From assembly GCA_025450975.1 (NCBI GenBank), contig JANWLI010000191.1, positions 1 through 32,466 on the forward strand: a stretch of DNA of 32,466 nucleotides. The letters run 5' to 3'. This document shows positions 5,814-24,551 of this stretch, piece after piece (position 1 is the first letter of the stretch; each line of letters starts with the position of its first letter). The notes below the pieces were generated by a model, which was not told where the DNA came from, searched no databases, and worked only from the letters and a program-made list of their open reading frames with translations. This stretch comes from Candidatus Kapaibacterium sp. (GTDB taxonomy: Bacteria > Bacteroidota > Ignavibacteria > Palsa-1295). The position numbers and the translations under genes are program-made.

Positions 5814-7505
5814 TCAATTAACTGGCGTCGCGCCAAGGTCTCGCATTAACGCTTCCTCGAGCGGACTGAGTTCAACATTCTGAGCAACGGCTGCCGGCAT
5901 CTCGTAGGATGCGCCGTTCGGCTTAGCTTCCGGCGGCCTTGCAGGTTGCGGCATAGGCGGCGCTTCGAGCTTCTTCTCGGTGCGATGCAGGACGTAGTTC
6001 GCTGCCGGGCCGAAAACTACACGAAGCTGCTCCTCGAAGACATGGCCGACTCTGGCGAACGTGTCGACCGTGTGGTTCTTGGAAACCTCGATCGTCAGCG
6101 TGTTGCCTTCCTGGCCTGCGAAGCGGATATCGTCGGAGATCATCTTGAACGGGATGCTCTTGGTTGTCAACGACTCCTTGAAGCTTAGCCAACGATCTTC
6201 GGTGGCAACGACTACCGGAGCGCCGTTGGTCGCAGGTGCTGGCTTCGGCGGAGCTGGTGTTGGTGCAGCTGCTGCAACCGGCTCGGGTGCTGCCGCTACT
6301 GGCGTTACCTCGAGGTCAGGCTTTTTTTTTACAGAGGATGAAGGGGCGAGAGGGGCACCTCCGTTGAGGCCTCGGACCTCATTGATCAGCGTCATGATGT
6401 CGACGGCCTTCTCGGCAAGAGCCATTTCGACGAGCATCATCTCAAGGATCATCCTCGGACTCGGCGCGTTGCGAAGATCGGCCAAAGCCTTGAGGCCGAT
6501 CCTCGTCAGCTTCAGGACATCACCCTCCGAGAAGTGCTTCGCATCGGCCAGGTAGCGATCGGCGTGATGCTTCGACACTTCAAGCAACGCTACGTTACGC
6601 GTAACGATCACGGTCAGCAGCGCTCGGTAATGCTCGAGCAGGCCGCCGATAAACTCCTCGACGTCGTAGCCTCGCATCACTACATCGTTGGCAAGACCGA
6701 AGGCCTTGGCGTTGTCGCGGGCTGCGATGGCGTCAGTCACTGCAAAGAAGAAGTCGGCATCGATCAGGTTCAGCGCCTGACGTAGCGCCTCAAAGTCAAG
6801 CTTGCCACCGCTGAAGGCTACTGCCTGATCGAAGATCGACTGCGCGTCGCGCATCGAGCCATCGCCCTTCTTCGCGATAGCGATCAGCGCTTCGTCATCG
6901 GCATCGTAACCATCGGCCTTGGCGATGAGTCGCAAGTGATTGACGATCTCCTCGACCTGCATCCTCCGAAAATCGTAACGCTGCGTTCTGGAGAGGATCG
7001 TCGGCAGCACCTTCTGAACTTCGGTCGTGGCGAAGATGAAGATCAGGTGACGCGGCGGTTCTTCGAGCGTCTTGAGAAGCGCATTGAAAGCGCTTGTCGA
7101 GAGCATGTGAACTTCGTCGATGATGATGACCCGGTACTTGCCTTGAATAGGCGGGTACTTGACGTTATCACGCATCGCGCGGACATCGTCGACCGAGTTG
7201 TTCGAGGCGCCATCGATCTCGGAAACGTCCATCGACGATCCGCCGGTGATCGAAATGCAGACATCACACTTGTTGCAGGGCTCGTAGCCGTTCTTCTCGG
7301 CATTCGGACAGTTGATGGCCTTTGCCAGAAGACGGGCGACGGTCGTCTTGCCACAGCCGCGCTGGCCGGTGAAGAGATAGGCATGCGCTAAGCGGCCTTC
7401 GCGAATGGCGTTCTTCAACGTACGCGTGACGTGATCCTGCCCAACGACTTCATCGAATCGCTGCGGACGCCACTTGCGAGCGGTTACTTGGTACTGTTCC
7501 GACAT
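5814..7505 (-). CDS. dnaX: DNA polymerase III subunit gamma/tau
   Basis: Walker A GQRGCGKTT, Zn module CNKCDVC, Walker B IIIDEVHMLS, SRTQ sensor, Pro/Ala-rich linker, then a tau-type C-terminus. Confidence 0.9.
   Translation of the reverse strand: MSEQYQVTARKWRPQRFDEVVGQDHVTRTLKNAIREGRLAHAYLFTGQRGCGKTTVARLLAKAINCPNAEKNGYEPCNKCDVCISITGGSSMDVSEIDGASNNSVDDVRAMRDNVKYPPIQGKYRVIIIDEVHMLSTSAFNALLKTLEEPPRHLIFIFATTEVQKVLPTILSRTQRYDFRRMQVEEIVNHLRLIAKADGYDADDEALIAIAKKGDGSMRDAQSIFDQAVAFSGGKLDFEALRQALNLIDADFFFAVTDAIAARDNAKAFGLANDVVMRGYDVEEFIGGLLEHYRALLTVIVTRNVALLEVSKHHADRYLADAKHFSEGDVLKLTRIGLKALADLRNAPSPRMILEMMLVEMALAEKAVDIMTLINEVRGLNGGAPLAPSSSVKKKPDLEVTPVAAAPEPVAAAAPTPAPPKPAPATNGAPVVVATEDRWLSFKESLTTKSIPFKMISDDIRFAGQEGNTLTIEVSKNHTVDTFARVGHVFEEQLRVVFGPAANYVLHRTEKKLEAPPMPQPARPPEAKPNGASYEMPAAVAQNVELSPLEEALMRDLGATPVN
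6321..6330 (-). promoter_or_regulatory. Candidate dnaX recoding site (A9 run containing A AAA AAG)
   Basis: The minus-strand mRNA reads GUA AAA AAA AAG CCU GAC CUC GAG GUA A. The -1 frame gives GCC UGA (stop after 1 codon). The +1 frame reaches UAA after 5 codons. The site sits at codons 392-395, just before the Pro/Ala linker. Confidence 0.5.
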
Positions 7506-7598: not shown

Positions 7599-8894
7599 TT
7601 AGATGGCCACCTTCGGCCAGCCCATCTGCTTCCGCTGCTCCTTGATGCGCTTGAGGCCATCCTTGCCGCGCATACGGACGATCTCCTTATCGTCCCAGAA
7701 GATGGCGCCGTCTATGAGCTTGGGTTCGAGGGCTTTGAGCTTTGACTCGCGGAGCTTCTCGTCGGGCTCTGCTTTTGCGGCGGCGTAGCGTTTGGCTTCT
7801 TCGTTGGCATCAACTAAACGCTGAAACGTAAATCCACACTGCCGCGCAAGCTCGCGGAACATCGTGCGCGTCTTGTAGACGTCCTTCCAGATCTCCGGCA
7901 TCGGCGGATACATGCTCGGATCCTCGTTGAAGCAACTCATCGCCGCCCGCCATAAGCCCGGAGCAAAATGTACGGACAACGGATCGTAAGCGCCGCCCAT
8001 CACGTCGTGCGCAGCGTCGCCCAAATTTTCCCACGGACACGGAATTTCCCCCTGTAACTCGCTGAAATATTTAGCATTTAGATTTACACACACACTATCG
8101 AGATCGAACGACTGCGGATCGAAATCCGGACGCGACAAGACGATGGCACGCTGATCGGTCAGCACCGGAGTCTGCTCTATCACACGCACTTCCGGAATGA
8201 TGACAGGATCATTAACAACCAGATCCGGCTCGCCCTCATCGGAGATAACCGTATGCTCCACAAAAAGCCGCGGAGCATGTTTACCTTCCCGTACCCCGTC
8301 ACCCGTACCCCGCCCCCCGAGCTCCAATGCTTCCAGTTCTGCAGCTGCGCGTGCATTCTCATCGAGACGAAGCTCCTTTGCGATCGGCTCGATGTGGCGG
8401 GCGATCGCTGCGAGCTTGCCGACGCCGCCATGTTTGATCGTGCCGACTTCGGCGCTCGAATCGGCCTGGCTCCAGACAATAACCGTGATCTCATCTTCGG
8501 TAACGAGGCTGCGCAGGAAAAACAGAAGATCGGTCGCAAGCCGCGGAGTACACGAGGCGAATTCCCACGAATTGATGATGACGACCGAGGCCGAGCCGAT
8601 GTCGTCGCGGAGTTCGCGGCGGCGGCGGGCGAGCTGTCCGCGCGGCGCAGTCAGACAGCTAAAGCGCGGCATGAAGCCCGACGTGGCGTTCTTGCCAAGG
8701 ATCTCGCGCGCCCGCGCCATGAACGTCCACGCAGAGAACGCAGAGTTGATGTAATAGACGGATCGGTTCAGGTTGCGAAGCATCAGCGCCTGCTTAAGCG
8801 ACGCATCGAGATTGCGCTCGGCATGATCGCCCTGGAAGATAGTGACTTCGCGTTCGACAAACGACAGGAGTTTGTAGGTTAGGTTCTTATTCAT
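7599..8894 (-). CDS. Hypothetical protein (431 aa), no family recognised
   Basis: Long GC-rich ORF with backbone-like composition. No motif I can name; the N-terminal half vaguely resembles a RecA/KaiC-like fold but has no P-loop. Confidence 0.5.
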   Translation of the reverse strand: MNKNLTYKLLSFVEREVTIFQGDHAERNLDASLKQALMLRNLNRSVYYINSAFSAWTFMARAREILGKNATSGFMPRFSCLTAPRGQLARRRRELRDDIGSASVVIINSWEFASCTPRLATDLLFFLRSLVTEDEITVIVWSQADSSAEVGTIKHGGVGKLAAIARHIEPIAKELRLDENARAAAELEALELGGRGTGDGVREGKHAPRLFVEHTVISDEGEPDLVVNDPVIIPEVRVIEQTPVLTDQRAIVLSRPDFDPQSFDLDSVCVNLNAKYFSELQGEIPCPWENLGDAAHDVMGGAYDPLSVHFAPGLWRAAMSCFNEDPSMYPPMPEIWKDVYKTRTMFRELARQCGFTFQRLVDANEEAKRYAAAKAEPDEKLRESKLKALEPKLIDGAIFWDDKEIVRMRGKDGLKRIKEQRKQMGWPKVAI

Positions 8895-8952
8895 AGTGGT
8901 TAGTGAGTTTTATGAGTTTGTGAGTTTAATGAGTTGATGCGGAGAGTTGATA

Positions 8953-8994
8953 CCCTACCTGCGAAGCAGGTAGGGGCACTGCATGCAGTGCCCC
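8953..8994. repeat. Two abutting perfect hairpins
   Basis: cctacctgc-gaa-gcaggtagg (10-bp stem, 8953-8975) and the 22-nt perfect palindrome ggggcactgcatgcagtgcccc (8973-8994). Confidence 0.75.
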
Positions 8995-9006
8995 ACCCGG
9001 GAGTTA

Positions 9007-9090
9007 TCTGAACTGGAATTTGTGAAATTCATGGAATTTTTGGAATTCTAATTTCACGAATTCCATCAATTCCATAAATTCCAGTTCAGA
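9007..9090. repeat. 84-bp palindromic element built from 9-bp-spaced tgRaatt repeats
   Basis: tctgaactggaattt (9007-9021) is the exact reverse complement of 9076-9090. Forward tg(g/a)aatt copies lie at 9014, 9023, 9032 and 9041. Inverted aatt(t/c)ca copies lie at 9050, 9059, 9068 and 9077. The centre is near gaattc. Confidence 0.85.
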
Positions 9091-9453
9091 CATCCCTGCC
9101 AGCAGCGCAAACGCCGATCAAGCTCCGCAGAGCCCAATACTATCGAAATGCCCGGATATGGAAATAATGACGAGTGTGGATCTCATCATGGTGTGGAGAA
9201 TTTACACGCCCTCCTCCCTGCCAGGGAAAAGGGCCGCGGATGTGGGTGAGCCCTATCGCACCGCCTTCAGAATGCCGCCCGGATTTTCGTTAGAATATCC
9301 AGACGAATTCACGGCTTTAAAACATCATAAATGCCATCGAAGTTCATGCCGCTTTGGAAAAATGTTTGAAATGTTGTTTTAAAATGGAGTACCGATAGAG
9401 TACCGGAATATTGAAATTTATATTTATTTTAGTAGGTTCATACCTTGAGAATA

Positions 9454-9807
9454 ATGTCGGACAAAACACAGAATTTTCTGGTCTCTGTTTTATATTTAGT
9501 GGTCCTTCCTTTGGTCCCATTTTTCGTTGAATTAATAAGTGAAGAGTTTATTGCATTGAGTTCGTATTTGCTTTTTTCATCAGTTTATATTATTGTTATT
9601 GGTACTGCTTCAAAAAATAAGGCTCTGTTTGCACTATGTTTAGTCGTGGCATTAATTCTATCAATGCTTAATGGTGTGAAAGATTATCAGACTACAAATA
9701 TTTTCCCTCTTTATTCTTCCCCAGTTTCATATTGCTTAATTATTATCGCGACTATGCATGTTATCGAAAGATGGAATCGTCATATTGAAAGCGGAGAACC
9801 ATTCTAA
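9454..9807 (+). CDS. Small integral membrane protein (about 4 TM helices), hypothetical
   Basis: The ATG at 9454 is preferred to the TTG at 9445. Four hydrophobic stretches. The stop overlaps the next start (TAATG). Confidence 0.5.
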   Translation: MSDKTQNFLVSVLYLVVLPLVPFFVELISEEFIALSSYLLFSSVYIIVIGTASKNKALFALCLVVALILSMLNGVKDYQTTNIFPLYSSPVSYCLIIIATMHVIERWNRHIESGEPF

Positions 9808-10220
9808 TGACATGGGATATACTTCCATATATTGCTATTAGTGCCTCTTCAATAGCACTAATCATTTCTGCATTAAGCTTGCAAAGAAAAATTGCATCTG
9901 ATAAGCACTTTGTTGAATTGCTAATGCGCGAGCGTGAAGAAGAATTAAGAAGACTCCATCAAGAATTCAATCAATTGGTGAAGTTGCGAACAGCGGGACA
10001 CAAAGCTGTACCTGAGAGTCAGGTCAATCTTTCAATAGGTAAACTCAATGAACTTCAAAGCTCTTTCATTAAGTTCTCTGAGGCTCTCAATAAAAACGAT
10101 CGACAATATGTTCTAAATTCTTTAAATCAAGAGAGTATCTATGGAAGGGTAAATTATTTAAACAAGATACTACATCTTTCCGGCTTTCCTGAGGACATAG
10201 TAGTTAAACAAAAGGATTAA
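9807..10220 (+). CDS. Small protein with N-terminal TM helix and coiled-coil-like tail, hypothetical
   Basis: MTWDILPYIAISASSIALIISALSL is followed by a charged heptad-like sequence (REREEELRRLHQEFNQL). 1-nt overlap upstream and a 21-nt gap to the ATPase gene. Confidence 0.5.
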   Translation: MTWDILPYIAISASSIALIISALSLQRKIASDKHFVELLMREREEELRRLHQEFNQLVKLRTAGHKAVPESQVNLSIGKLNELQSSFIKFSEALNKNDRQYVLNSLNQESIYGRVNYLNKILHLSGFPEDIVVKQKD

Positions 10221-10241
10221 AAGAGACAGAGGTCATACATT

Positions 10242-12743
10242 ATGTTGCTAAAAACTGTATTCATACGATTTTATAAATCTTTCAATTTTGACTATATCGG
10301 AAGACTCGCGCGAACTCAATTTAAGGAATGGGACCGAATTGGGGAGAGAAAATATCCATTTGTAGAAGTACCTATAGAGAATGATATTACGGCAATTGTC
10401 GGTGCAAATGAATCAGGGAAAAGTCATCTGCTTAGTGCTGTAAAAGTTGGGTTGTTAAATCTCAAGACTCAATTAGAAGATGTATGCAGATATTCAGACT
10501 TCTTCAATGCAAAAGTCGGTCAGTCTAAGCTTCCGGATTTTGGGTATGAATTTTCACAATTAACCGATAGTGAGAAACTAAGGCTACAACAGATTTTAGG
10601 ACTGGAAAGCGATACTAGAATCGATAAGTTCTATTTTTTCAAATTCCTTCCTGAAGACCACAAAATTTACCTTAATGATGATCAGAGCATCTACAATATA
10701 GATGAAGCGCAGCTTAAAACTCTTTATACCATCCTACCTACGGTCTTCGAAATCAATTCGAAGATAGCACTTCCTGACAGTGTACCGTTATCTTACTTGA
10801 TTGACGAGCATAATGCACAAACGCCATCGTGGAAGAGGCTCGGAGCTTCTGGGAGAAATGATCTAGGCAATTTAATCGTTGAGAATGCTCCGCAATTTGC
10901 GACCCCAGAGGCCATCGCAAATAACAATCAGCACATTTTTAACTCTATATCCGCACGTCTAAACACACTCACTTTAGAGGAAGGCGACGTTGAAAAAACG
11001 AAGGAAAAATTAACGCAATATCAGCTGGCTGAAGCCCTCTTATATAAAATTGGCGACATAGACAAGAAGTATCTAACAGCTTTATATAAAGCATTGACGG
11101 AACGAAAGCAGGGCTTGGTTCAGGGGATACTCAATGAAATCAATCTCCGCTTGGAAGTAAGTTTGAACTTCCCTAAGTTCTGGGTCCAGGACAGAAATTT
11201 TCAATTAAGGGTTACAGTTCGAGACTACGAATTAGTTTTCACAATAAGAGATAGGACTAATACAGAATATACCTTTGCTGAACGGAGTCATGGACTTAAA
11301 TATTTTCTTAGCTACTACATTCAATATCTTGCTCATACGCCTTCTCATGCCGGTGATGAGATTCTTTTAATGGATGAGCCGGATGCGTATTTATCTTCTC
11401 AGGCGCAACAAGATCTTTTGAAAATCTTCGAAGGGTTTGCCCACCCTGCAACATTGGGCAATAAATCTGTGCAAGTAATATACGTAACACATTCTCCGTT
11501 CCTTATTGATAAGAATAACTCTCAACGTATTCGAGTGCTTGAGAAGGGGGCGCAAGATGAAGGCACTAGAGTGGTTTATGACTGTAGCCGCAATCATTAC
11601 GAACCGCTAAGATCAGCGGTCGGAATAATGGCAGGCGAAATGGTATTTATTGGTAATTGTAATTTATTAGTTGAAGGTGCATCAGATCAAATATATCTTT
11701 CCGGGGCTGCGCAGCAATTGACAAAAGATAGAATTAAAACTCCAATTGCTGAAAGGATTAATTCACAATACAACTTAGACTTAAATATTATCACCATTGT
11801 GCCATGTGGAGGCGCAGAGAATATACCTTATATGGTGTATCTGTCAAGAGGTCGTGATGTTGAACAACCAGCTATTATCGCACTGCTAGATAATGACGAT
11901 GAGGGTCTCAAGGCCCGTAGAAGACTTGCCAGGGCGATCTTAAAAGATAAAGGTCGCTTGTTACAAGCCAACTACCTCATAGGGATAGAGGATATTGAGC
12001 CCGACTTAAGCCTTGGACATAAATTGACGTGCATAGAGAGTTTAATCCCTCTGTCATTAGCTATATGCGCGGCGCACCTCTACTTTAGAGAATTATTTCC
12101 AGACCAGTCGTCACAACTCAGCGAACTGAACGCTAATGATTTGCACCTACTTGCAACTGAATCGGGCAGCGTACTTGAAGCCATTAATTTATGGATAGCT
12201 CAAAGAGGCTTAGACATTGAACTGTCCAAGATAGGCTTTGCACGATCCGTGATAGATCTTATAAAAACCGAAGAGAAGAAGGATGAGATATTTAATATTC
12301 TTGGCCTCGACGAAGGCACAAAGCAATTTAAAGAGAACATGCAGAAGTTAAATTTTAGGATTAATGAAGCTAGGAGAAAAGCTGAGGAGGAGAGGAATAA
12401 AGATCGGGTAAGCGGCAAAGTAAATAGACTTATTGATACGTTTGTTGATCATCATCAATCTGAAGTCACTAAAGAGGATCTTGAGCTGCTAATTGAGAGA
12501 ATACGGTTTAGTTTGGATGAGAGTTTAGAAAGTAGCCATATAGATTTTGTGCTCCAACAAATAGAGAGTACTCTCAAGTTGGGCGACAAGACTCTTCCAT
12601 TGATTGATGACACCATACAGTTGTACCGGCTGCTTGACATCGTGAAAAGCGCCGGCAAATTGGGCAGCCAAGATCGAGGTATACTCCAAGGGGGTGCTTT
12701 AAATGAAATCACAAAATTAATTACAGCACAGCCTGCTATATAG
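10242..12743 (+). CDS. OLD-family / PARIS-like ABC-type ATPase fused to a TOPRIM nuclease domain, with ~270-aa helical C-terminal extension
   Basis: Walker A GANESGKS (aa 54-61); signature-like SHGLKYFLS; Walker B ILLMDEPDAYL; H-loop VTHSP; TOPRIM LLVEGASDQ (Glu478) and LLDNDDEG (Asp550/552/553). Confidence 0.75.
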   Translation: MLLKTVFIRFYKSFNFDYIGRLARTQFKEWDRIGERKYPFVEVPIENDITAIVGANESGKSHLLSAVKVGLLNLKTQLEDVCRYSDFFNAKVGQSKLPDFGYEFSQLTDSEKLRLQQILGLESDTRIDKFYFFKFLPEDHKIYLNDDQSIYNIDEAQLKTLYTILPTVFEINSKIALPDSVPLSYLIDEHNAQTPSWKRLGASGRNDLGNLIVENAPQFATPEAIANNNQHIFNSISARLNTLTLEEGDVEKTKEKLTQYQLAEALLYKIGDIDKKYLTALYKALTERKQGLVQGILNEINLRLEVSLNFPKFWVQDRNFQLRVTVRDYELVFTIRDRTNTEYTFAERSHGLKYFLSYYIQYLAHTPSHAGDEILLMDEPDAYLSSQAQQDLLKIFEGFAHPATLGNKSVQVIYVTHSPFLIDKNNSQRIRVLEKGAQDEGTRVVYDCSRNHYEPLRSAVGIMAGEMVFIGNCNLLVEGASDQIYLSGAAQQLTKDRIKTPIAERINSQYNLDLNIITIVPCGGAENIPYMVYLSRGRDVEQPAIIALLDNDDEGLKARRRLARAILKDKGRLLQANYLIGIEDIEPDLSLGHKLTCIESLIPLSLAICAAHLYFRELFPDQSSQLSELNANDLHLLATESGSVLEAINLWIAQRGLDIELSKIGFARSVIDLIKTEEKKDEIFNILGLDEGTKQFKENMQKLNFRINEARRKAEEERNKDRVSGKVNRLIDTFVDHHQSEVTKEDLELLIERIRFSLDESLESSHIDFVLQQIESTLKLGDKTLPLIDDTIQLYRLLDIVKSAGKLGSQDRGILQGGALNEITKLITAQPAI

Positions 12744-13025
12744 GTCACCCACTTTCGTTATTATGACAAAACTCCTCATTAACGAGTAGTTCGATGAGTT
12801 ACAGGTTACTGATATTGATCGTTGTTGCAGGCTGCGCTCTTTATGTCGGTGTGGTGAGGGCACAGATTACTGGGGAGTCGCCTGCCTGCTTCTTCGAATC
12901 GTATACAGAGTCCCACTACCTCTCGCTTCAGCCTTCGTATAATCTCTTGCGGCGATAATGATTTTACAACTGTATGTGCTTCGCGGCTACTCAGAATTCT
13001 TCAACGACTAAATGCTGATCTCTGT

Positions 13026-13544
13026 ATGAAGCTCGGTCTCCTCTTTAGCGTCCTCGTTCTTTTCTCGTGCTCCTCGGCTCGGCAGCAGTGGATGGGGGAA
13101 AGTACCGTCGACGACGATGCGTTCAGCCGCGAGCAAGCTGAGCGGATGCTGGGCGCACCTGTTGAGGATGCGGAGATCTTGCGCTCCTGGGGATGTCTGA
13201 CGTATGATAAGATCTGGCAATTCACTGGCGCACCCGATGCTGTGACGGGAAAGGCCGCACATATCATTGTCTTTGTCGAGAGCTCTCCGAATGCTGTTGC
13301 GAACGTGCCGGCGCGCTACGCAGAGGCGGCGCGGAGATCGGGGATGAAGGACTCCAATCATGTCGTAGGTGTTGGCGATGAGGCACATTTTCGCGAGTCG
13401 CAGTCAGAGCGTTGGCTCTCTGCGCGCAGGGGTATGTATACGATCGATCTGAAGCTCAGGGGAAGCAGTAGCGCAACGACGGCGGAGTTCTTGCGCGTGG
13501 CGGGCGAGGTGGTGGGTCGTCTGAACTTGGATTTGTCGGATTAA
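13026..13544 (+). CDS. Hypothetical lipoprotein (paralog of 13787..14281)
   Basis: Lipobox VLFSCSS. Shares FS-x-EQAE-x-LG-P and GVGDEA(H/Y)F blocks with the next lipoprotein. Confidence 0.55.
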   Translation: MKLGLLFSVLVLFSCSSARQQWMGESTVDDDAFSREQAERMLGAPVEDAEILRSWGCLTYDKIWQFTGAPDAVTGKAAHIIVFVESSPNAVANVPARYAEAARRSGMKDSNHVVGVGDEAHFRESQSERWLSARRGMYTIDLKLRGSSSATTAEFLRVAGEVVGRLNLDLSD

Positions 13545-13786: not shown

Positions 13787-14281
13787 ATGCATACCATCCT
13801 TTCAGTCCTGATAGTATTCTTGTTTACATGTGGCAGGCAGCAGGCGCCGGCTGTGGCTACGGGGGAGTTGTTTAGTCTTGCCGAAGCGGAGAAGATCCTT
13901 GGCGAACCGGCGACGCTCGGCAATAATACCGAAGGCTTCGACGGGCAGAGCGGCTTTCATAATATCGACTATACGGCCAAAGATACCGATCGCGTCAGCG
14001 GCAAGCTGGGGGCGATCTATCTGTTGATGCAGTCGTACAAGACCGAAGCTGGTGCGCAGGAGCGGTACACGACGATCAAGACGGCCAACGAGCCACATGG
14101 GATCGAGACGCTGACAGGTGTCGGCGACGAGGCGTACTTCCATACCGATAACGAGAACTTCCTCTTCATCATGGCGCGCAAAGGCGTGAAGGTCCTGACG
14201 ATGAAGGTGAACAAGGTCACAAGCAAGACGTCGGTCGACGCGTTCAACAAGGTCGCGCGGAAGATCGTCGGGAAGATGTGA
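13787..14281 (+). CDS. Hypothetical lipoprotein (paralog of 13026..13544)
   Basis: Lipobox FLFTCGR. Conserved blocks FSLAEAEKILGEPA, GVGDEAYFH and ARKGVKVLTMKV align with the preceding gene. Confidence 0.55.
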   Translation: MHTILSVLIVFLFTCGRQQAPAVATGELFSLAEAEKILGEPATLGNNTEGFDGQSGFHNIDYTAKDTDRVSGKLGAIYLLMQSYKTEAGAQERYTTIKTANEPHGIETLTGVGDEAYFHTDNENFLFIMARKGVKVLTMKVNKVTSKTSVDAFNKVARKIVGKM

Positions 14282-14338: not shown

Positions 14339-14794
14339 ATGAAGATAGTAGTTGTGTTGATGGCGATCGTGTGTATGGCCTGCTCGAAGGATAAGACGAA
14401 GGTCACGCCGAATGTGATCGAGGCGCCGGCCGCCAATGGGCTGGACTGTGAGAGTCAGCATAACGAGATGGATGCTGCGATCCGCCGGATGATCCCGGAG
14501 ATCGGGACGATCGGCGATGCCTATGTCGAGCGCGTCACCCAGGGAAAGGCTAAGCTCAATTTTTCGATCGAGCGGTGTGCGACGCCTAGTGCGCCGGATT
14601 CGATCACGCAGAATTACCATGTCCTTACCTATGGCTACGCAGTAGATGGCAAATCGACTCACTGGTACGGCTTTTACCTGCATAAGGACCTTGGGCGGAT
14701 GATCGTCTACGATATCCCTACGAGAATGCAGCTTCCGCTGGAGGAAATGCGTAAAACGCAGGAGTGGAAGATGCAGTGGGGAGTGAGGAAATAG
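14339..14794 (+). CDS. Hypothetical lipoprotein
   Basis: Signal peptide/lipobox MKIVVVLMAIVCMACSK. No recognised domain. Confidence 0.5.
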   Translation: MKIVVVLMAIVCMACSKDKTKVTPNVIEAPAANGLDCESQHNEMDAAIRRMIPEIGTIGDAYVERVTQGKAKLNFSIERCATPSAPDSITQNYHVLTYGYAVDGKSTHWYGFYLHKDLGRMIVYDIPTRMQLPLEEMRKTQEWKMQWGVRK

Positions 14795-18996: not shown

Positions 18997-19022
18997 TTCC
19001 CCACCAACTCCCACAAATCGCA

Positions 19023-19074
19023 AATTTCCCCCTGTAAGCCCTTGTAAATAAACGATATCAATTTACACACACAC
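19023..19074. repeat. Copy of a ~52-bp segment that also lies inside CDS 7599..8894 (8043-8095)
   Basis: Exact 15-mer aatttccccctgtaa (8043-8057 and 19023-19037) and exact 14-mer atttacacacacac (8082-8095 and 19061-19074), with spacings of 39 and 38 nt. Confidence 0.7.
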
Positions 19075-19082
19075 GCCGGGAG

Positions 19083-19110
19083 TTGATAGTTGTCAGTTGA
19101 TAGTTGATAG
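19083..19110. repeat. Heptamer array (gttgata/gttgtca/gttgata/gttgata)
   Basis: Direct reading. Reverse-complement family of the gactatc array at 13712-13743. Confidence 0.8.
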
Positions 19111-19462
19111 CGGGATGCGCTGGAGAGTCGGTAGTCGTTAGCGGAATTCCCCGGGACCTCCGGAAATTTACACGCGCGGTGGGAGAAAATCCCACGAATC
19201 CCAGTCCGTGCCCAGAAGAGAGCGCCCGTGAAAACCATATATCTGGAAGTTGAGAACATGCGCCTGGATCGGCAAAAATGTTAGAATCGGAGAGAACAAA
19301 GCATGGGGATATGCTGTATTCGGGAGTATAACAATTATTTTATATATAGGATTCGGGGGGAATGATGCAATATCAGACTTTGGAGCTAAGCTTTTAATTT
19401 AGGCTGGATATAACTATTGGGAGAGTTGGGATAGAAATTGTGTGGAATGTATAAAAATATCA

Positions 19463-19470
19463 TATTTTTG
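19463..19470 (+). promoter_or_regulatory. Candidate Bacteroidota-type -7 promoter box (TATTTTTG = TAnnTTTG)
   Basis: Motif match 21 nt upstream of the dcm ATG. Only meaningful if the host uses FCB-type sigma-A promoters. Confidence 0.3.
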
Positions 19471-19491
19471 TAAAAGGAAATATCCGCTCAG

Positions 19492-20586
19492 ATGACTAAG
19501 AACCCCAAAAACATTGCTTTTGATGATTTTGCCGTAGTAGATTTATTTTGCGGGATTGGTGGACTCACCCATGGTTTTATAAAGGAAAATTTTATAGTTG
19601 ATGCCGGAATTGATTTCGATCAATCATGCAAATACGCATATGAAAAAAATAACGATACAAAATTCATATACAACGATATTACCCAACTCTCTCTAAGAAA
19701 GTTAACTTCCTTATATACTAAGGGTAAGAAAAAAATTCTTATCGGCTGTGCGCCTTGTCAACCATTTTCTAAATATAATCATACTGAAAAAAAGAGTAAA
19801 CATATTGAAAAATCTAAATGGAAGTTACTCTACTCATTTTCCGCATTAATCCAAAAGCTGCAACCAAAGATTATTTCTATGGAGAATGTCCCACAACTTG
19901 TTAATTTTAATAATGGAAAAATCTTTAATGACTTTATAAGTAAGCTGCGGCGAAGTGGTTATCATATTAGTTGGTCAATTGTAAACGCACAAGATTATGG
20001 GGTTCCTCAACGACGCAAACGGTTGATTCTATTCGGATCTAAATATGGAGAAATAAAACTAATCGATAAAACTGTAACCGAAAAAAAATATAAGACAGTT
20101 AGAATGGCGATAGGCCATCTCCCACCTGTTGAAGACGGCATCGTTCTTTCAGATGATCCCTTACATAGAGCACGAAAGTTAACAGAGTTAAACAAGAAAC
20201 GAATTCAAGCAACCAAAGAGGGGGGATTCTGGCGCGACTGGGACAAAGACCTCTGGCTAGACTGCCATAAGAACGATATCGGGAAAGAATATAGAAGCGT
20301 TTATGGAAGAATGAATTGGGACGATGTTGCTCCTACTATGACGACTTATTGTGTAGGACTAAGCAATGGACGATTTGGCCACCCTGAGCAAGATAGGGCG
20401 ATTTCACTGAGGGAAGCTGCATTACTACAAAGTTTTCCAGAATCATATGATTTAATCGATCCAGAAGCAACATTCTCTTCTCCTAAAATTGCAAGACACA
20501 TTGGGAATGCGGTTCCAGTGGAACTGGGTATAGTCATTGCCAAAACAATAAAAAAACATATCAACGAAGTTGGAAGAATTAGATAA
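19492..20586 (+). CDS. dcm: DNA (cytosine-5)-methyltransferase
   Basis: Motif I DLFCGIGG, motif IV GCAPCQPFS, motif VI ENV, motif VIII QRRKR, motif X GNAVP. Confidence 0.92.
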   Translation: MTKNPKNIAFDDFAVVDLFCGIGGLTHGFIKENFIVDAGIDFDQSCKYAYEKNNDTKFIYNDITQLSLRKLTSLYTKGKKKILIGCAPCQPFSKYNHTEKKSKHIEKSKWKLLYSFSALIQKLQPKIISMENVPQLVNFNNGKIFNDFISKLRRSGYHISWSIVNAQDYGVPQRRKRLILFGSKYGEIKLIDKTVTEKKYKTVRMAIGHLPPVEDGIVLSDDPLHRARKLTELNKKRIQATKEGGFWRDWDKDLWLDCHKNDIGKEYRSVYGRMNWDDVAPTMTTYCVGLSNGRFGHPEQDRAISLREAALLQSFPESYDLIDPEATFSSPKIARHIGNAVPVELGIVIAKTIKKHINEVGRIR

Positions 20587-22738
20587 TAAGCTTCGCTGGC
20601 GATTTGACGTTAATACTTTCCGACTGCTGGGAAGAGAGCTAATTACCGATCGCATAACAGCAGTTTTCGAATTGGTTAAAAACTGCTATGATGCAAACAG
20701 CACAGAAGTAGACGTCATGTTTTTTGGTGTTGCCCCGGTTGACACTAAAAGCAAGCTAAATACAAATGGGAATGTGTCTTCAATCATAACAAAACCACTC
20801 GATGGAAAGGTGATAATTAAAGACAATGGCATAGGTATGTCATTTGAGGACATCCGTGACAAATGGATGGTAGTTGGCACAAATAGTAAGCGCGTTCAAT
20901 TGTTCTCAGATGAACCTTTCAAGAGACGGTTTGTAGGAGAAAAAGGGATAGGTCGATTTGCTGTCGATAAGTTAGGTGCTCAAGTAAAAATCATAACAAA
21001 GAAGGCTGGCGATGTTAGCTGGTTAAATGTTGAAATAAATTGGGAGGAGTATGAGAGCAAAGCATCGCAAGAGCAGTTAATCTTATTTACGGATATTGAG
21101 AACAAATACTATTATACTGACGCCTCAGTAGATGAGCAGGGGACAATTCTTGAAATTACTAAAATAAACGATTATTGGACAAAGCTTGATATTGACAGGC
21201 TTTTTAAAGAATTAGCTAAAGTTGTTTCTCCTTTTTTTGCTTCAGTCAACCCATTTAATATTTATCTAACTTGCAGTGACTTCCCAGACTATGTAAAAAA
21301 GAAGCACGTAAAAGCCGATGAAACCAAATATTCGTCCCATAAGGCAACTATAGATTTCGACCTTAATGCTGGGTCACAAGAACAATTAGTATTTGACGAA
21401 AAGGGCGGTCAAATCAACACTGAGAAAATTCCGATAAAATCGTTTGGCCCTGTAAAAATGCTACTCTACTACTTCAACAATGAAGCAAAAAAACGGTATA
21501 ATCGGGCATATAAGAACGACGACTCTAGAATAGATGGAATTAAGATTTATCGGAATGGAATAATCACCACTCCATTTGCAGAATTTGAGGCGCATCCAGA
21601 TAAAAAACGAGATATCTTAGGTATTGATAAGAGATTATGGAGAGATATTTTTAATAAAGTCAGTAGTCGCGAAGTTATCGGCATAGTTGAGATAACAAAA
21701 GAAAACAACCCTCAGATTATTGATGCGACGAATAGACAAGACTTTGTTGATACGCTGGAATTCAGAGATCTAAAAGTTTTTATAATTCAGCAACTTGATG
21801 TTCTTGCCAAGTTAAAACAATATGAAAGGAGCAAGACAAAGGCGCAGCGACAAACTGCTCTGGAGAAAGCTGGGGCCGACATTAAGTCTTTCAAAGATGT
21901 TATTGAAAATATTGAAAGTCAAAATCCTGTTCTTAAGGAGTATTTAGAGCCGCTTAAAGAGCAAGCAATTCAAATTGGGAGAACAGTTTCAAAGGGAATT
22001 CAAGAGCAAAAAAAAGAGCGCGAAGAATTCACTCGGAAAGAGAATATTTATTTTTCATTGATGTCCTTGCAGGACTATGCAATACGGATATCACATGCAG
22101 TTCGAACCTCACTGGGCAAAATTAAAAGAATGGCCGAGTACTTCAAGGACCATTTCCCAGATGAAAACTTAACTGATGATTTCAAGGAATACTCGCTGCT
22201 TATCTATGAAGAGATGAATACTTTAAGCAGAGTCATCGATTTTATGCTAAGCTATGCAGCTTCTAATGCTGATTTCGTCGACTTCAGCGTAAAAGAGTTA
22301 ATTTTGAACCTTCTCACCGTATCCTATAAACAGACCTTTAAAGATGAAGGCATAACGCTAACAATTGACATTAAGGATAATTTTATAGTTAACGCCAATA
22401 AAAAATTTTTTGAAGACATAATACAGAATCTCGTTTCGAATTCCATAAAAGCTCTCCAAAAAATGCCGAATAAGCATATAAAGTGCACGGGATATATTGA
22501 GGACAAGCAATTTGTTTTCTTTTTTTCTGACAATGGCGTAGGAATAAAGAGAGGCGAAGAAGATAAAGTTTTTGAGATCTACTACACAACGACAGCAGAA
22601 GAAGGTGGTGCTGGTCTTGGGTTATTTATTGTAAAGACCAGGATTGAAGCTTTGAAAGGCACGGTCGAGATTGTTCAACCTGAATTCAATCCGAGCGGTG
22701 CGACGATTAAAATCACATTGCCATTTAGGGAGGGGTAG
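20570..22738 (+). CDS. Fusion protein: N-terminal MORC/HATPase_c_3-like GHKL ATPase + coiled coil + complete histidine-kinase core (DHp + CA)
   Basis: N-terminal module: ELVKNCYDA, DNGIGMS, GEKGIGRFA, then GIKIYRNGI (S5-like region). C-terminal module: H-box ISHAVRTSL (His509, nt 22094-22096), NLVSNSIKA, DNGVGI, GGAGLGLFIVK. The TTG start overlaps dcm by 17 nt; there is no in-frame ATG before the first N-box. Confidence 0.7.
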   Translation: MEELDNKLRWRFDVNTFRLLGRELITDRITAVFELVKNCYDANSTEVDVMFFGVAPVDTKSKLNTNGNVSSIITKPLDGKVIIKDNGIGMSFEDIRDKWMVVGTNSKRVQLFSDEPFKRRFVGEKGIGRFAVDKLGAQVKIITKKAGDVSWLNVEINWEEYESKASQEQLILFTDIENKYYYTDASVDEQGTILEITKINDYWTKLDIDRLFKELAKVVSPFFASVNPFNIYLTCSDFPDYVKKKHVKADETKYSSHKATIDFDLNAGSQEQLVFDEKGGQINTEKIPIKSFGPVKMLLYYFNNEAKKRYNRAYKNDDSRIDGIKIYRNGIITTPFAEFEAHPDKKRDILGIDKRLWRDIFNKVSSREVIGIVEITKENNPQIIDATNRQDFVDTLEFRDLKVFIIQQLDVLAKLKQYERSKTKAQRQTALEKAGADIKSFKDVIENIESQNPVLKEYLEPLKEQAIQIGRTVSKGIQEQKKEREEFTRKENIYFSLMSLQDYAIRISHAVRTSLGKIKRMAEYFKDHFPDENLTDDFKEYSLLIYEEMNTLSRVIDFMLSYAASNADFVDFSVKELILNLLTVSYKQTFKDEGITLTIDIKDNFIVNANKKFFEDIIQNLVSNSIKALQKMPNKHIKCTGYIEDKQFVFFFSDNGVGIKRGEEDKVFEIYYTTTAEEGGAGLGLFIVKTRIEALKGTVEIVQPEFNPSGATIKITLPFREG

Positions 22739-22739
22739 G

Positions 22740-23360
22740 ATGCCGATTTCTAGCATAAAAACTGTTATAATTCATGATAATTTATCTCCACGCGATCCCC
22801 TGATCGTTGAACTTCAAAAAATATACGGCAAAAATAATGTTATTTTTTTTAAGGATGCTCAAGAAGGCTTAACCTATCTAAATGAACATATTACTGAAAA
22901 ATTAATAGTATTATTAGACCTAAATTTTGAGTCGTCGAACCCTCTCACAGGCGGAAAACTTTTTGAAGAAATTCGGAAAAAAACCTCATTAATTTACGTG
23001 ATTATATGGACTGCAGCAGACTTAAGTTCTGTCGACAAAGAAGACCTTGTTAGTTTTATAAATAACGATGCTCTTGCATTTGCATATGCAACTGCGGACA
23101 CCGCGGAAATCATCAATCTTATCAATAAGGCATCTCATCAACTCTCAACCAGAATTGACGCCCTACTTGAAGATCTGATTGCCCACCAACCTAATAATAC
23201 GAAGGACACTCCAACCTTCATGACAAAGGATGGGAAACAATATACCTTAAATGAAATAGCAGATAGCATACGCCATCAGGATGAGCTGGGCAAAATGATA
23301 GAAGCGAGCATCTTAAATTTAGCTATCGACTTATTAATACGACATGAGAAGCCGATCTGA
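22740..23360 (+). CDS. Receiver (REC)-like domain protein with uncharacterised C-terminal half
   Basis: The ATG at 22740 lies 1 nt after the upstream stop. It aligns by eye to CheY: VIIHDN (beta1), LIVLLDLNF (Asp60, nt 22917-22919), YVIIWTA (beta4 Thr). The conserved beta5 Lys is not evident. Confidence 0.45.
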   Translation: MPISSIKTVIIHDNLSPRDPLIVELQKIYGKNNVIFFKDAQEGLTYLNEHITEKLIVLLDLNFESSNPLTGGKLFEEIRKKTSLIYVIIWTAADLSSVDKEDLVSFINNDALAFAYATADTAEIINLINKASHQLSTRIDALLEDLIAHQPNNTKDTPTFMTKDGKQYTLNEIADSIRHQDELGKMIEASILNLAIDLLIRHEKPI

Positions 23361-23980
23361 TGGTACATGTAATTGTTGCTTATGATGAGATTGCATCGAA
23401 AGGAGGCTCTTATTTCCAAGAGAGTTTTGACTACATTGCCGGTAAACTTAACGCCCTCTCCGCCGTAACTGTAAGACCTCTACCGAATGCAAGATGCACC
23501 AAGCAGAGCATTAAGTCTGAAATTGAATCCTTAGAGAAATTTATTTTTGTCGGGATCTCTCACGGCCATGAAACCCTTCTTAAGGCGAACTCTATCTACG
23601 TTGAGTCAAGTGACCTTGCACTATTTGAAGGTTCTTTTTTTTATACAGCCGCCTGTTTGACAGGAAGAATTTTAGGACCCGCCTTGATTGCACATGGATG
23701 CGTCGCCTACATAGGCTATACTGTTGATGTAGATGTATGGCTTTCGCACTCCTCTACCTTTGCTGACTGTGAGAATTACGCGCTCTGCGAGTTTATCACA
23801 TCTGACAAAACTGTTAGAACAGTTTTTGATGAAGCCGTTACCAGATACAACACTGAAATTAATCGACTTCTAAATGGGAATTTCCTTGATGTAATTGCCG
23901 CATCATTTCTTCGATCGAACCGAAATGGCCTTTTAATTATTGGTAACGAGAGATCTACTGTTCATGATTTTGACTGCTAG
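23360..23980 (+). CDS. Hypothetical protein with caspase/clan-CD-like His-Gly ... Ala-Cys pair (possible protease effector)
   Basis: FIFVGISHGHE (His68, nt 23561-23563) and FFYTAACLTG (Cys99, nt 23654-23656), each following a hydrophobic beta-strand-like stretch. Start overlaps the upstream stop (TGATG). Confidence 0.35.
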   Translation: MVHVIVAYDEIASKGGSYFQESFDYIAGKLNALSAVTVRPLPNARCTKQSIKSEIESLEKFIFVGISHGHETLLKANSIYVESSDLALFEGSFFYTAACLTGRILGPALIAHGCVAYIGYTVDVDVWLSHSSTFADCENYALCEFITSDKTVRTVFDEAVTRYNTEINRLLNGNFLDVIAASFLRSNRNGLLIIGNERSTVHDFDC

Positions 23981-24402
23981 TGTCTGACATCTTTAGCAAT
24001 GAGAAAAGAAGCCAAATCATGGCTTCGGTAAAGTCTATTAATACTCGTCCTGAGATTGTAGTTAGGAAATACCTATTTGCTTGTGGTTTTAGATATCGCA
24101 TTAATCACCCCAAATTACCTGGTAAACCTGACATTGTGCTTCCTAAATATAAAACTGTAGTTTTTATTCATGGATGCTTTTGGCACGGGCATCGAGAGTG
24201 TGAAGCTTCTCAATTGCCTAAAACTAGGTTAGACTACTGGTCAAAAAAAATAGAAAGTAATTCTCTCAGAGATAAAAAAAATGTTTCGAGTTTAAGAATA
24301 CAGGGCTGGCAGGTTATCATCGTTTGGACATGCCAACTATCAAATAAGTCAAAGAAAGAAAAAGCGCTCACAAAACTAGTTCGAATGATATCGAAACCAT
24401 AA
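23980..24402 (+). CDS. vsr: Very short patch repair endonuclease
   Basis: KRSQIMASVKSINTRPE, RKYL...GFRYR, GKPDIV, FIHGCFWHGH. 140 aa. GTG start overlaps the upstream stop (TAGTG). Confidence 0.9.
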   Translation: MSDIFSNEKRSQIMASVKSINTRPEIVVRKYLFACGFRYRINHPKLPGKPDIVLPKYKTVVFIHGCFWHGHRECEASQLPKTRLDYWSKKIESNSLRDKKNVSSLRIQGWQVIIVWTCQLSNKSKKEKALTKLVRMISKP

Positions 24403-24551
24403 ACATTACGTCCTGTATCTTTGATTATCCTTGTCTTGCAGTCTCACTTCTGGGCTTACCTTGTTGCGTTCCTTGGTAGTTGTCAGCGGCCCGCGAACAC
24501 GCGTGGCGTGTCCCTACGGGGTGCACTTCGCGCGTATCCTCGCGCTTGTAC

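Follow-up and report, generated by a model that had tools for sequence, protein, structure and literature searches.

The window analysed here is the whole of a 32,466-nucleotide (nt) stretch of Candidatus Kapaibacterium sp. (contig JANWLI010000191.1), and the subject of this work is an AT-rich islet within it that holds three genes. They code for a small inner-membrane protein with four transmembrane (TM) segments, here called TM4, a small protein with a single N-terminal TM segment, here called TM1, and an OLD-family nuclease of 833 amino acids (aa). All three genes are co-oriented head to tail, the stop codon of TM4 and the start codon of TM1 overlap in the sequence TAATG, and the OLD gene starts 21 nt past the TM1 gene (Table 1). 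The guanine-cytosine (GC) content is 0.33 in the TM4 gene, 0.355 in the TM1 gene, and 0.40 in the OLD gene, compared with 0.56-0.58 in the flanking genes, which are dnaX, an upstream 431-aa gene, and the downstream genes. The coordinates of the open reading frames (ORFs) and the drop in GC bear out the three-gene AT-rich cassette proposed in the original prediction, a short note made earlier from the letters of this DNA. There is a slight difference in composition inside the islet, where the GC content at third codon positions is 0.27-0.30 in the TM4/TM1 pair and 0.38 in the OLD gene. Of 5000 composition-matched simulations of the stretch 9384..10241 (858 nt, 35% GC), none contained two stretches on the same strand that stayed free of stops for 117 codons or more. 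Because of this result, and because homologues of both proteins exist elsewhere, TM4 and TM1 are true genes and not chance ORFs. Att-like direct repeats and tRNA genes were searched for at the islet edges and rejected, as neither a tRNA gene nor an att-like flanking direct repeat was present at the borders. The best reading is that the three genes sit in one imported, horizontally acquired AT-rich islet.

Table 1. Coordinates of the islet, its genes and the nuclease motifs in the window, and contexts of the TM4/TM1 pair in other DNA.
Feature	Position	Strand	Basis or content
AT-rich islet, about 3.9 kb, holding three genes	9000..12950 (about)		Composition profile falls to 0.35-0.42 GC
TM4 gene (gene 1), 117 aa, four-TM inner-membrane protein	9454..9807	+	ATG ORF; alternative TTG at 9445 gives 120 aa
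TM1 gene (gene 2), 137 aa, one N-terminal TM	9807..10220	+	ORF
OLD nuclease gene (gene 3), 833 aa	10242..12743	+	ORF
Walker A GANESGKS, residues 54-61	10401..10424	+	G54, N56, E57, S58, G59, K60 invariant
Signature-like ERSHGLK	11280-11300	+	Located in sequence
Walker B LLMDEPD, residues 375-381	11364..11384	+	Family alignment
H-loop VTHSP, residues 415-419	11484-11498	+	Family alignment
TOPRIM catalytic glutamate motif VEGASD, residues 477-482	11670..11687	+	E478, G479, D482 invariant
TOPRIM DxD metal-binding motif DNDDE, residues 550-554	11889..11903	+	D550, D552, G555 invariant
All-helical C-terminal tail, about 250 aa, residues about 585-833	11997..12740	+	Conserved alignment columns; AlphaFold2 helices 598-828
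Pair in L096-100 (JGI metagenome contigs)			HEPN_AbiU2 gene and 38-aa ORF overlapping the pair, one operon
Pair in L088			DUF4062-domain gene (E 4e-32) 218 nt downstream
Pair in L102 (IMG/VR viral contig)			268-aa gene 16 nt upstream; putAbiC-domain membrane protein (E 1e-5) 55 nt downstream
Pair in L092 (203-kb contig)			166-aa unknown gene, amid housekeeping genes
Pair in L103			Alone among housekeeping genes: YebC, DCC-like gene
Pair in L104/105			Abrupt GC rise, no co-oriented gene
Pair in Peduovirus P2_4A7b (L106, NC_049390.1)	6001-6909		Between tail-fibre assembly gene G and sheath gene FI

By its sequence, the 833-aa protein qualifies as a bona fide OLD-family ABC-ATPase/TOPRIM nuclease, with all catalytic motifs intact. 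The five motifs reported in the original prediction (GANESGKS, LLMDEPD, VTHSP, VEGASD, and DNDDE) were recovered at the residues that it had given. In an alignment of 21 family members they coincide with invariant columns, those of K60, D378/E379, H417, E478, D482, D550, and D552 among them. The protein matched the Pfam families AAA_15 (4e-17) and AAA_21 (8e-12), both over the cut-off, and OLD-like_TOPRIM (PF20469) at 24.3 bits against a gathering cut-off of 23.2. The best sequence match of the family profile in the PDB was 6P74, the Class 1 OLD of Thermus scotoductus (TsOLD), which was partial (E 2e-7). The AlphaFold2 (AF2) model of the protein has a predicted local distance difference test score (pLDDT) of 72.5, and its top Foldseek matches were the retron-Eco8 OLD effector and GajA (E 1e-8 to 2e-9), with Rad50/SMC heads also among the matches. 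These searches agree with the earlier assignment to the OLD-family ATPase-TOPRIM proteins. The architecture consists of an ABC-type ATPase, an inserted helical (dimerisation-like) region, the TOPRIM domain, and a clade-specific helical tail. That tail was correctly predicted to be helical, and its length is about 250 aa rather than the estimated 270 aa. It is conserved clade-wide in two family alignments and absent from the characterised OLD classes, and it has neither a Pfam match nor a sequence match in the PDB. It may be a domain for regulation or sensing.

Class 1 OLD proteins are stand-alone genes with variable neighbours and no conserved partner (PMC10568477; PMC12796447). The characterised enzymes of this class nick or degrade DNA, and P2 Old cleaves tRNA. 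Similar to P2 Old, TsOLD, Vibrio cholerae OLD, and Escherichia coli YbjD, the 833-aa protein starts with an ABC ATPase interrupted by a helical insertion and continues with a TOPRIM domain that has the E...DxD metal site. However, it is about 250 aa longer, with a helical tail that has no known counterpart, its sequence similarity to this class is remote (the partial match to 6P74), and the window copy is apparently co-transcribed with two membrane genes. GajA of Gabija (Class 2) and the retron-Eco8 OLD (Class 3) have the same fold as the window nuclease, but the GajA matches from PADLOC cover parts of the models only. No UvrD/PcrA-like GajB is adjacent to the nuclease gene; the nearest helicase gene is a GC-rich DEAD-box gene of the RhlE type, 2.1 kb downstream and outside the islet. 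Likewise, no reverse transcriptase ORF was found in or beside the islet, and an Rfam scan of 8500-13500 revealed no retron RNA.

PARIS (Class 4) also combines an ABC ATPase with a TOPRIM nuclease, and a generic AAA_15-type 'AriA' model matches the window protein. In contrast to PARIS, the window TOPRIM is OLD-like (PF20469) with no DUF4435, and the protein comes from a single gene of another length and architecture. The original prediction had placed the VEGxxD form closer to the DUF4435/AriB style of TOPRIM, and this cannot be upheld. VEGASD aligns with LLVEGYGD of TsOLD and is an ordinary OLD TOPRIM form, the DUF4435 hidden Markov model (HMM) gave no match at E<=1, and the PADLOC model of fused AriAB reached 36 bits over a partial match, below the GajA and Old models. 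All PADLOC matches of the 833-aa protein, to AriA, GajA, and Old models, were generic and partial. In Class 5, Cran1 of Sulfolobales (clade U11) forms a conserved putative operon with the predicted membrane protein SiRe_0087; it has been implicated in cell-cycle progression, and published assays detected no antiviral protection (PMC12796447). The view that no OLD protein with a membrane partner is known is outdated by this class. Compared by description only, Cran1 is archaeal and its partner is conserved, whereas the window clade is bacterial and does not keep the membrane genes with the nuclease.

More than 2,500 full-length homologues (780-900 aa, 37-44% identity) share the helical tail of about 250 aa and form one clade with the window nuclease. 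Their hosts include cyanobacteria, Planctomycetota, Actinomycetota, Acidobacteriota, alpha-proteobacteria, plasmids, and others. The gene context was sampled at loci L001-L084, among them 80 genome loci, and in 3 annotated plasmid records. The original prediction asked whether homologues of the nuclease keep the two small membrane-protein genes upstream, and took homologues without them as its refutation. The comparison goes against the prediction, as profile HMMs detected no TM4 or TM1 homologue (E<=1) in six-frame translations of L001-L084 (0/84), and there was none in the 3 plasmid records. A phmmer search across the 80 genome loci also found no homologue of either small protein, and a co-oriented TM ORF tightly upstream of the OLD homologue was almost never seen at these loci. 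The most widely shared neighbour families were found at no more than 6 of these 80 loci, and those cases were within-genus synteny, namely in Nostoc (a translational-GTPase-like gene) and in Streptomyces (a helicase gene). Each of the three plasmid copies stands as a lone gene annotated 'AAA family ATPase', with 236-560 nt of spacer before it. The copies adjoin type I restriction-modification, relaxase, or PD-(D/E)XK genes, and the small ORFs upstream of them are not hydrophobic and do not code for membrane proteins.

By context classification, the clade behaves as solitary and Class 1-like (PMC10568477; PMC12796447). This holds clade-wide, with no conserved neighbour at the 80 loci and lone genes on the plasmids, whereas the window copy itself lies 21 nt behind two co-oriented genes and, judged strictly by its context, is not solitary. 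The clade may be one of the uncharacterised clades noted in an earlier study (PMC12796447). It is absent from IMG/VR in a motif scan and nearly absent from the phage collection, where one partial match of 24% identity was found. The closest metagenomic homologues (L081-L083 and L084) are found in variable strings of defence and mobile genetic element genes. One of these contexts contains a SNF2-type helicase with DUF8437, a bpMoxR AAA_5 protein, Rad52, and DUF6744, and another contains an SMC_N/AAA_15 protein, HATPase_c, a SMODS nucleotidyltransferase, and a 275-aa gene 41 nt upstream.

Hydropathy analysis gave four peaks for TM4 (residues 8-23, 35-49, 58-72, and 90-104) and one for TM1 (residues 9-23), in agreement with the numbers of TM segments first read from the sequence. 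In the AF2 model of TM1 (pLDDT 85), the long helices 6-42 and 44-62 are followed by a small C-terminal alpha/beta domain, and a Foldseek search with this model gave no match at E<=0.001 in the PDB or BFVD. A cluster of lysine and arginine residues directly follows the TM segment of TM1, and from the positive-inside rule we infer that the conserved C-terminal parts of TM4 and TM1 are cytoplasmic. TM4 and TM1 probably form a small inner-membrane complex. An exhaustive HMMER search returned 14 remote homologues of TM1 (102-173 aa, 28-39% identity, E 4e-12 to 2e-4) and one further match of 917 aa. The TM1 homologues share the N-terminal TM helix and the C-terminal motif ILESLxQKSxKGQVNYLNKxxHLSGS. 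The TM4 homologues are 28-33% identical and share the motifs LPLxPxxFE and MHxxERWxRHIxGxEPF. TM4 belongs to phrog_22626 (E 1.9e-17), which is annotated 'unknown function' and on which a literature search found nothing, and neither TM4 nor TM1 belongs to a Pfam or PADLOC family. With either protein as the query, word-indexed searches for homologues returned only the window's own sequences. Scans of viral contigs yielded nothing for TM1 and one locus for TM4, tblastn gave nothing for either protein against plasmids or for TM1 against phages, and a metagenome scan with a narrower TM1 alignment found one locus of 1.5 kb.

Several assignments were tried for the two proteins and rejected. DUF4760 matched TM1 in one member only (E 0.15). 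A ZorB/MotB-like stator was considered for TM1, but the ZorB3 match (E 0.005, 14 bits) covers the helical region only and no MotA-type partner is present. MerC matched TM4 below the threshold in 4 of 6 members (best E 0.006), and the conserved cysteine pair is missing. A holin/i-spanin lysis pair was rejected because the copy in phage P2_4A7b lies among tail genes and not in a lysis cassette, and the predicted topology of TM1 is the opposite. In addition, the Pfam families of RexB, holins, and MotA/ExbB gave no match at E<=1 for the window TM4 and five homologues.

The two small genes constitute a conserved cassette. As detected by the profile HMM, TM4 is immediately upstream of every TM1 homologue for which DNA was available, including the most divergent ones, with a 4-nt overlap or a distance of no more than 12 nt; in a contig known from gene calls only, a 149-aa gene lies upstream of the TM1 gene at a distance of 20 nt. 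The order is constant in the window, in 10 other dereplicated DNA contexts, and in 2 more contigs known from gene calls, which gives 13 contexts in all, 11 of them with DNA. The cassette comprises a TM4 of about 115-140 aa with the MHxxERWxRHIxGxEPF tail, followed by an N-anchored TM1 of about 120-165 aa with ...QKSxKGQVNYLNK..., and the window pair has this form. The window copies match the family HMMs with E-values of 4.7e-51 (TM4) and 5.4e-44 (TM1), values that are circular in that both sequences were used in building the HMMs. The phmmer matches at E 4e-12 and weaker, the phrog_22626 match, and the constant gene order in the 10 other DNA contexts support the family independently of these values. 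The relatives of the pair come from contigs of 28-35% GC.

No OLD gene lies beside the pair in the 10 other DNA contexts or the 2 contigs known from gene calls, so that the window stands alone in this respect. The company of the pair elsewhere is variable (Table 1). The HEPN_AbiU2 four-gene operon occurs on several contigs, near a WYL-domain regulator and a trypsin-like gene. For example, in L096 (5416-6901) the overlapping genes code for HEPN_AbiU2 (191 aa), the 38-aa ORF, TM4 (134 aa), and TM1 (135 aa). In the viral contig L102, HicA/HicB-like ORFs were identified nearby by eye. A Por_Secre_tail-domain gene suggests that the L092 contig comes from Bacteroidota. In the Peduovirus P2_4A7b, a 135-aa four-TM ORF (6001-6408) matches the TM4 family with E 4e-29, where the annotation of NC_049390.1 calls only a 70-aa coding sequence (6199-6408), and the 163-aa 'hypothetical protein' that follows is the TM1 partner. 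The P2 counterpart of this slot is fun(Z), annotated 'blocks growth of T5; lysogenic conversion'. The pair shares the G-FI slot with fun(Z), which is one gene of 528 aa, read from the opposite strand and unrelated to the pair in size and architecture. The P2_4A7b-type cassette is present in 2 of 5,426 complete E. coli genomes (NZ_CP027534.1 and NZ_OZ039410.1). Judged from its genomic contexts, the pair is a rare, horizontally mobile, self-contained cassette that is found with abortive-infection and defence genes and occupies a known prophage exclusion slot.

We therefore consider it moderately probable that the islet is a composite of two modules, which are independent elsewhere and now lie in one transcription unit. 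Module A (9454-10220, TM4/TM1) and Module B (10242-12743, the OLD nuclease) would have been joined during or before the acquisition of the islet. Module A would be an autonomous accessory cassette of mobile elements, as its genomic company suggests, and its inner-membrane complex might act in superinfection or phage exclusion or in abortive infection. A role in phage exclusion or abortive infection is most likely for Module A, in view of the genes with which it is associated. Such a role would be analogous, not homologous, to that of the RexB-like four-TM systems. RexB is a four-TM protein of about 144 aa. Like the pair, lambda RexA/RexB combines a small four-TM inner-membrane protein with a partner that has a cytoplasmic domain, and both are borne by prophages or islands; this is a functional analogy only, as no homology to the pair is detectable and TM1 itself is membrane-anchored. 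In Module B, the ATP-binding ABC-type ATPase would by homology control a two-metal TOPRIM nuclease, which might act on invading nucleic acid or on host tRNA, and the tail might regulate or sense. By analogy with Class 1 OLD, Module B is most likely a single-gene anti-phage or anti-mobile-element nuclease.

Several observations weigh against a composite of two independent modules. No terminator-like site lies in the 21-nt gap between TM1 and the OLD gene, and Shine-Dalgarno-like sequences precede the OLD gene (GAGG) and the TM1 gene (GGAG); the short gap and these signals imply that the three genes are co-transcribed in the window. Upstream of the OLD homologues the intergenic region usually measures 100-500 nt, compared with the 21 nt in the window. 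The pair contexts are few, many of them on contigs of only 1-2 kb, and the sampled OLD homologues are only 37-44% identical, so a closer subclade that keeps the TM4/TM1 pair could exist. Three other contexts have a co-oriented defence-type gene that overlaps the pair or lies 16-218 nt from it, and such neighbours fit a partnership with the adjoining enzyme as well as they fit the clustering of genes in islands. The gene structures, the motifs, the family membership, the conservation of the pair, and its lack of co-occurrence with OLD genes elsewhere are observed, while the defence role of either module, the formation of a complex, the topology, and the nuclease substrate are inferred.

Two alternatives couple the pair to the nuclease, and such a functional coupling in either form is possible though doubtful. 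The pair might be a reusable membrane module, an effector pore or a sensor and anchor, for whichever cytosolic defence enzyme adjoins it, and the window would then hold one functional three-gene system with an interchangeable nuclease. This is favoured by four independent contexts in which the pair is co-oriented with a nearby defence-type gene, each time another one; the spacing is 21 nt in the window, 218 nt in L088, and 16 and 55 nt in L102, and in L096-100 the genes overlap. The conserved TM4 and TM1 motifs are also predicted to be on the cytoplasmic side, that of the partner, and the helical tail of the OLD protein could offer a docking surface. On the other hand, the pair is alone in L103 and L104/105 and lacks an enzyme gene in the fun(Z) slot of P2_4A7b, and the OLD clade, tail included, exists more than 2,500 times without the pair; therefore, the tail did not evolve to bind the pair. 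In addition, HEPN_AbiU2, putAbiC, and solitary OLD are described as defence genes that need no such partner (family annotations; PMC10568477). Taken together, we regard a reusable module as unlikely. The same low probability is assigned to the broader proposal that TM4/TM1 is an unrecognised immunity membrane module of bacteria and prophages, which would serve as a lone phage excluder or as a plug-in sensor or effector for OLD, HEPN_AbiU2, DUF4062, and putAbiC proteins; if true, the window would hold the first bacterial case of an OLD nuclease coupled to a membrane complex. The original prediction went further and proposed a dedicated OLD system defined by its two membrane partners, which would act as effectors, as GajB defines Gabija. 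The physical coupling of the nuclease gene to two membrane-protein genes stands in the window, where the arrangement resembles an operon, and Cran1 with SiRe_0087 in Class 5 provides a precedent (PMC12796447). A system defined by these partners does not stand, since the pair was found at 0 of 84 nuclease loci and in 0 of 3 plasmid records, an OLD gene was found in 1 of 13 pair contexts (the window), and PADLOC has no model for an OLD protein with two TM proteins. Such a dedicated system is very unlikely.

It is also very unlikely that the pair is unrelated to phage defence, which would leave the OLD gene as the sole defence gene of the islet and the pair as a membrane moron of mobile elements, a transport or stress function, or a holin/spanin remnant. 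The pair has no homology to characterised defence proteins, TM4 shows the weak sub-threshold similarity to MerC described above, and a four-TM protein with an N-anchored coiled-coil protein superficially resembles a holin with an i-spanin. However, the pair recurs beside abortive-infection and defence genes and occupies the P2 exclusion slot, among tail genes rather than in a lysis cassette. The C-in topology predicted for TM1 is opposite to that of an i-spanin, and TM4 lacks the conserved cysteine pair of the MerC type. The composite of two modules, each of which occurs without the other elsewhere, is the interpretation that we retain.

The DNA around the islet has further features. Directly upstream of the islet, a divergent GC-rich ORF of 431 aa (7599-8894, minus strand) has no Pfam or PADLOC match. 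Between this gene and the islet, positions 8895-9100 contain structured non-coding DNA, with short tandem GTGAGTTT/ATGAGTT units and two short GC-rich hairpins at about 8955-8999. This region also contains a long hairpin (9007-9047/9050-9090) with 41-nt arms of 85% complementarity, which is unique in the window; it (9007-9090) matched no bacterial Rfam family and gave only spurious matches of the microRNA type. Downstream, three GC-rich ORFs in succession (13026-13544, 13787-14281, and 14339-14794; 151-172 aa) each open with a lipoprotein-like signal, a hydrophobic stretch followed by a cysteine, and belong to no Pfam family. A second AT-rich island (19000-24500, GC 0.36-0.41) holds a co-oriented gene string. 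It codes for a Dcm-type C5 cytosine methyltransferase (19492-20586; PF00145, 3e-66), a 722-aa protein (20570-22738) with an N-terminal HATPase_c_3 domain (MORC/MutL-like GHKL) and a C-terminal HisKA-like/HATPase_c region, two ORFs of no family (22671-23360 and 23360-23980), and a Vsr mismatch endonuclease (23980-24402). This island looks like a methylase-linked restriction or defence island, the type of which is unclear.

What is new here is a member of an uncharacterised, long-tailed OLD clade in unique juxtaposition with an uncharacterised membrane cassette. The window copy points to a very large bacterial OLD clade of more than 2,500 members with an extra helical domain of about 250 aa. The cassette is the more unexpected by-product, being rare, spread across distant hosts, and located in classic exclusion and defence positions, and the copy in the fun(Z) slot of P2_4A7b makes it directly testable in E. 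coli. If it is not an exclusion or abortive-infection module or a partner of several effectors, the islet would be an ordinary composite defence islet; if it is, the catalogue of bacterial defence would gain a new small membrane system.

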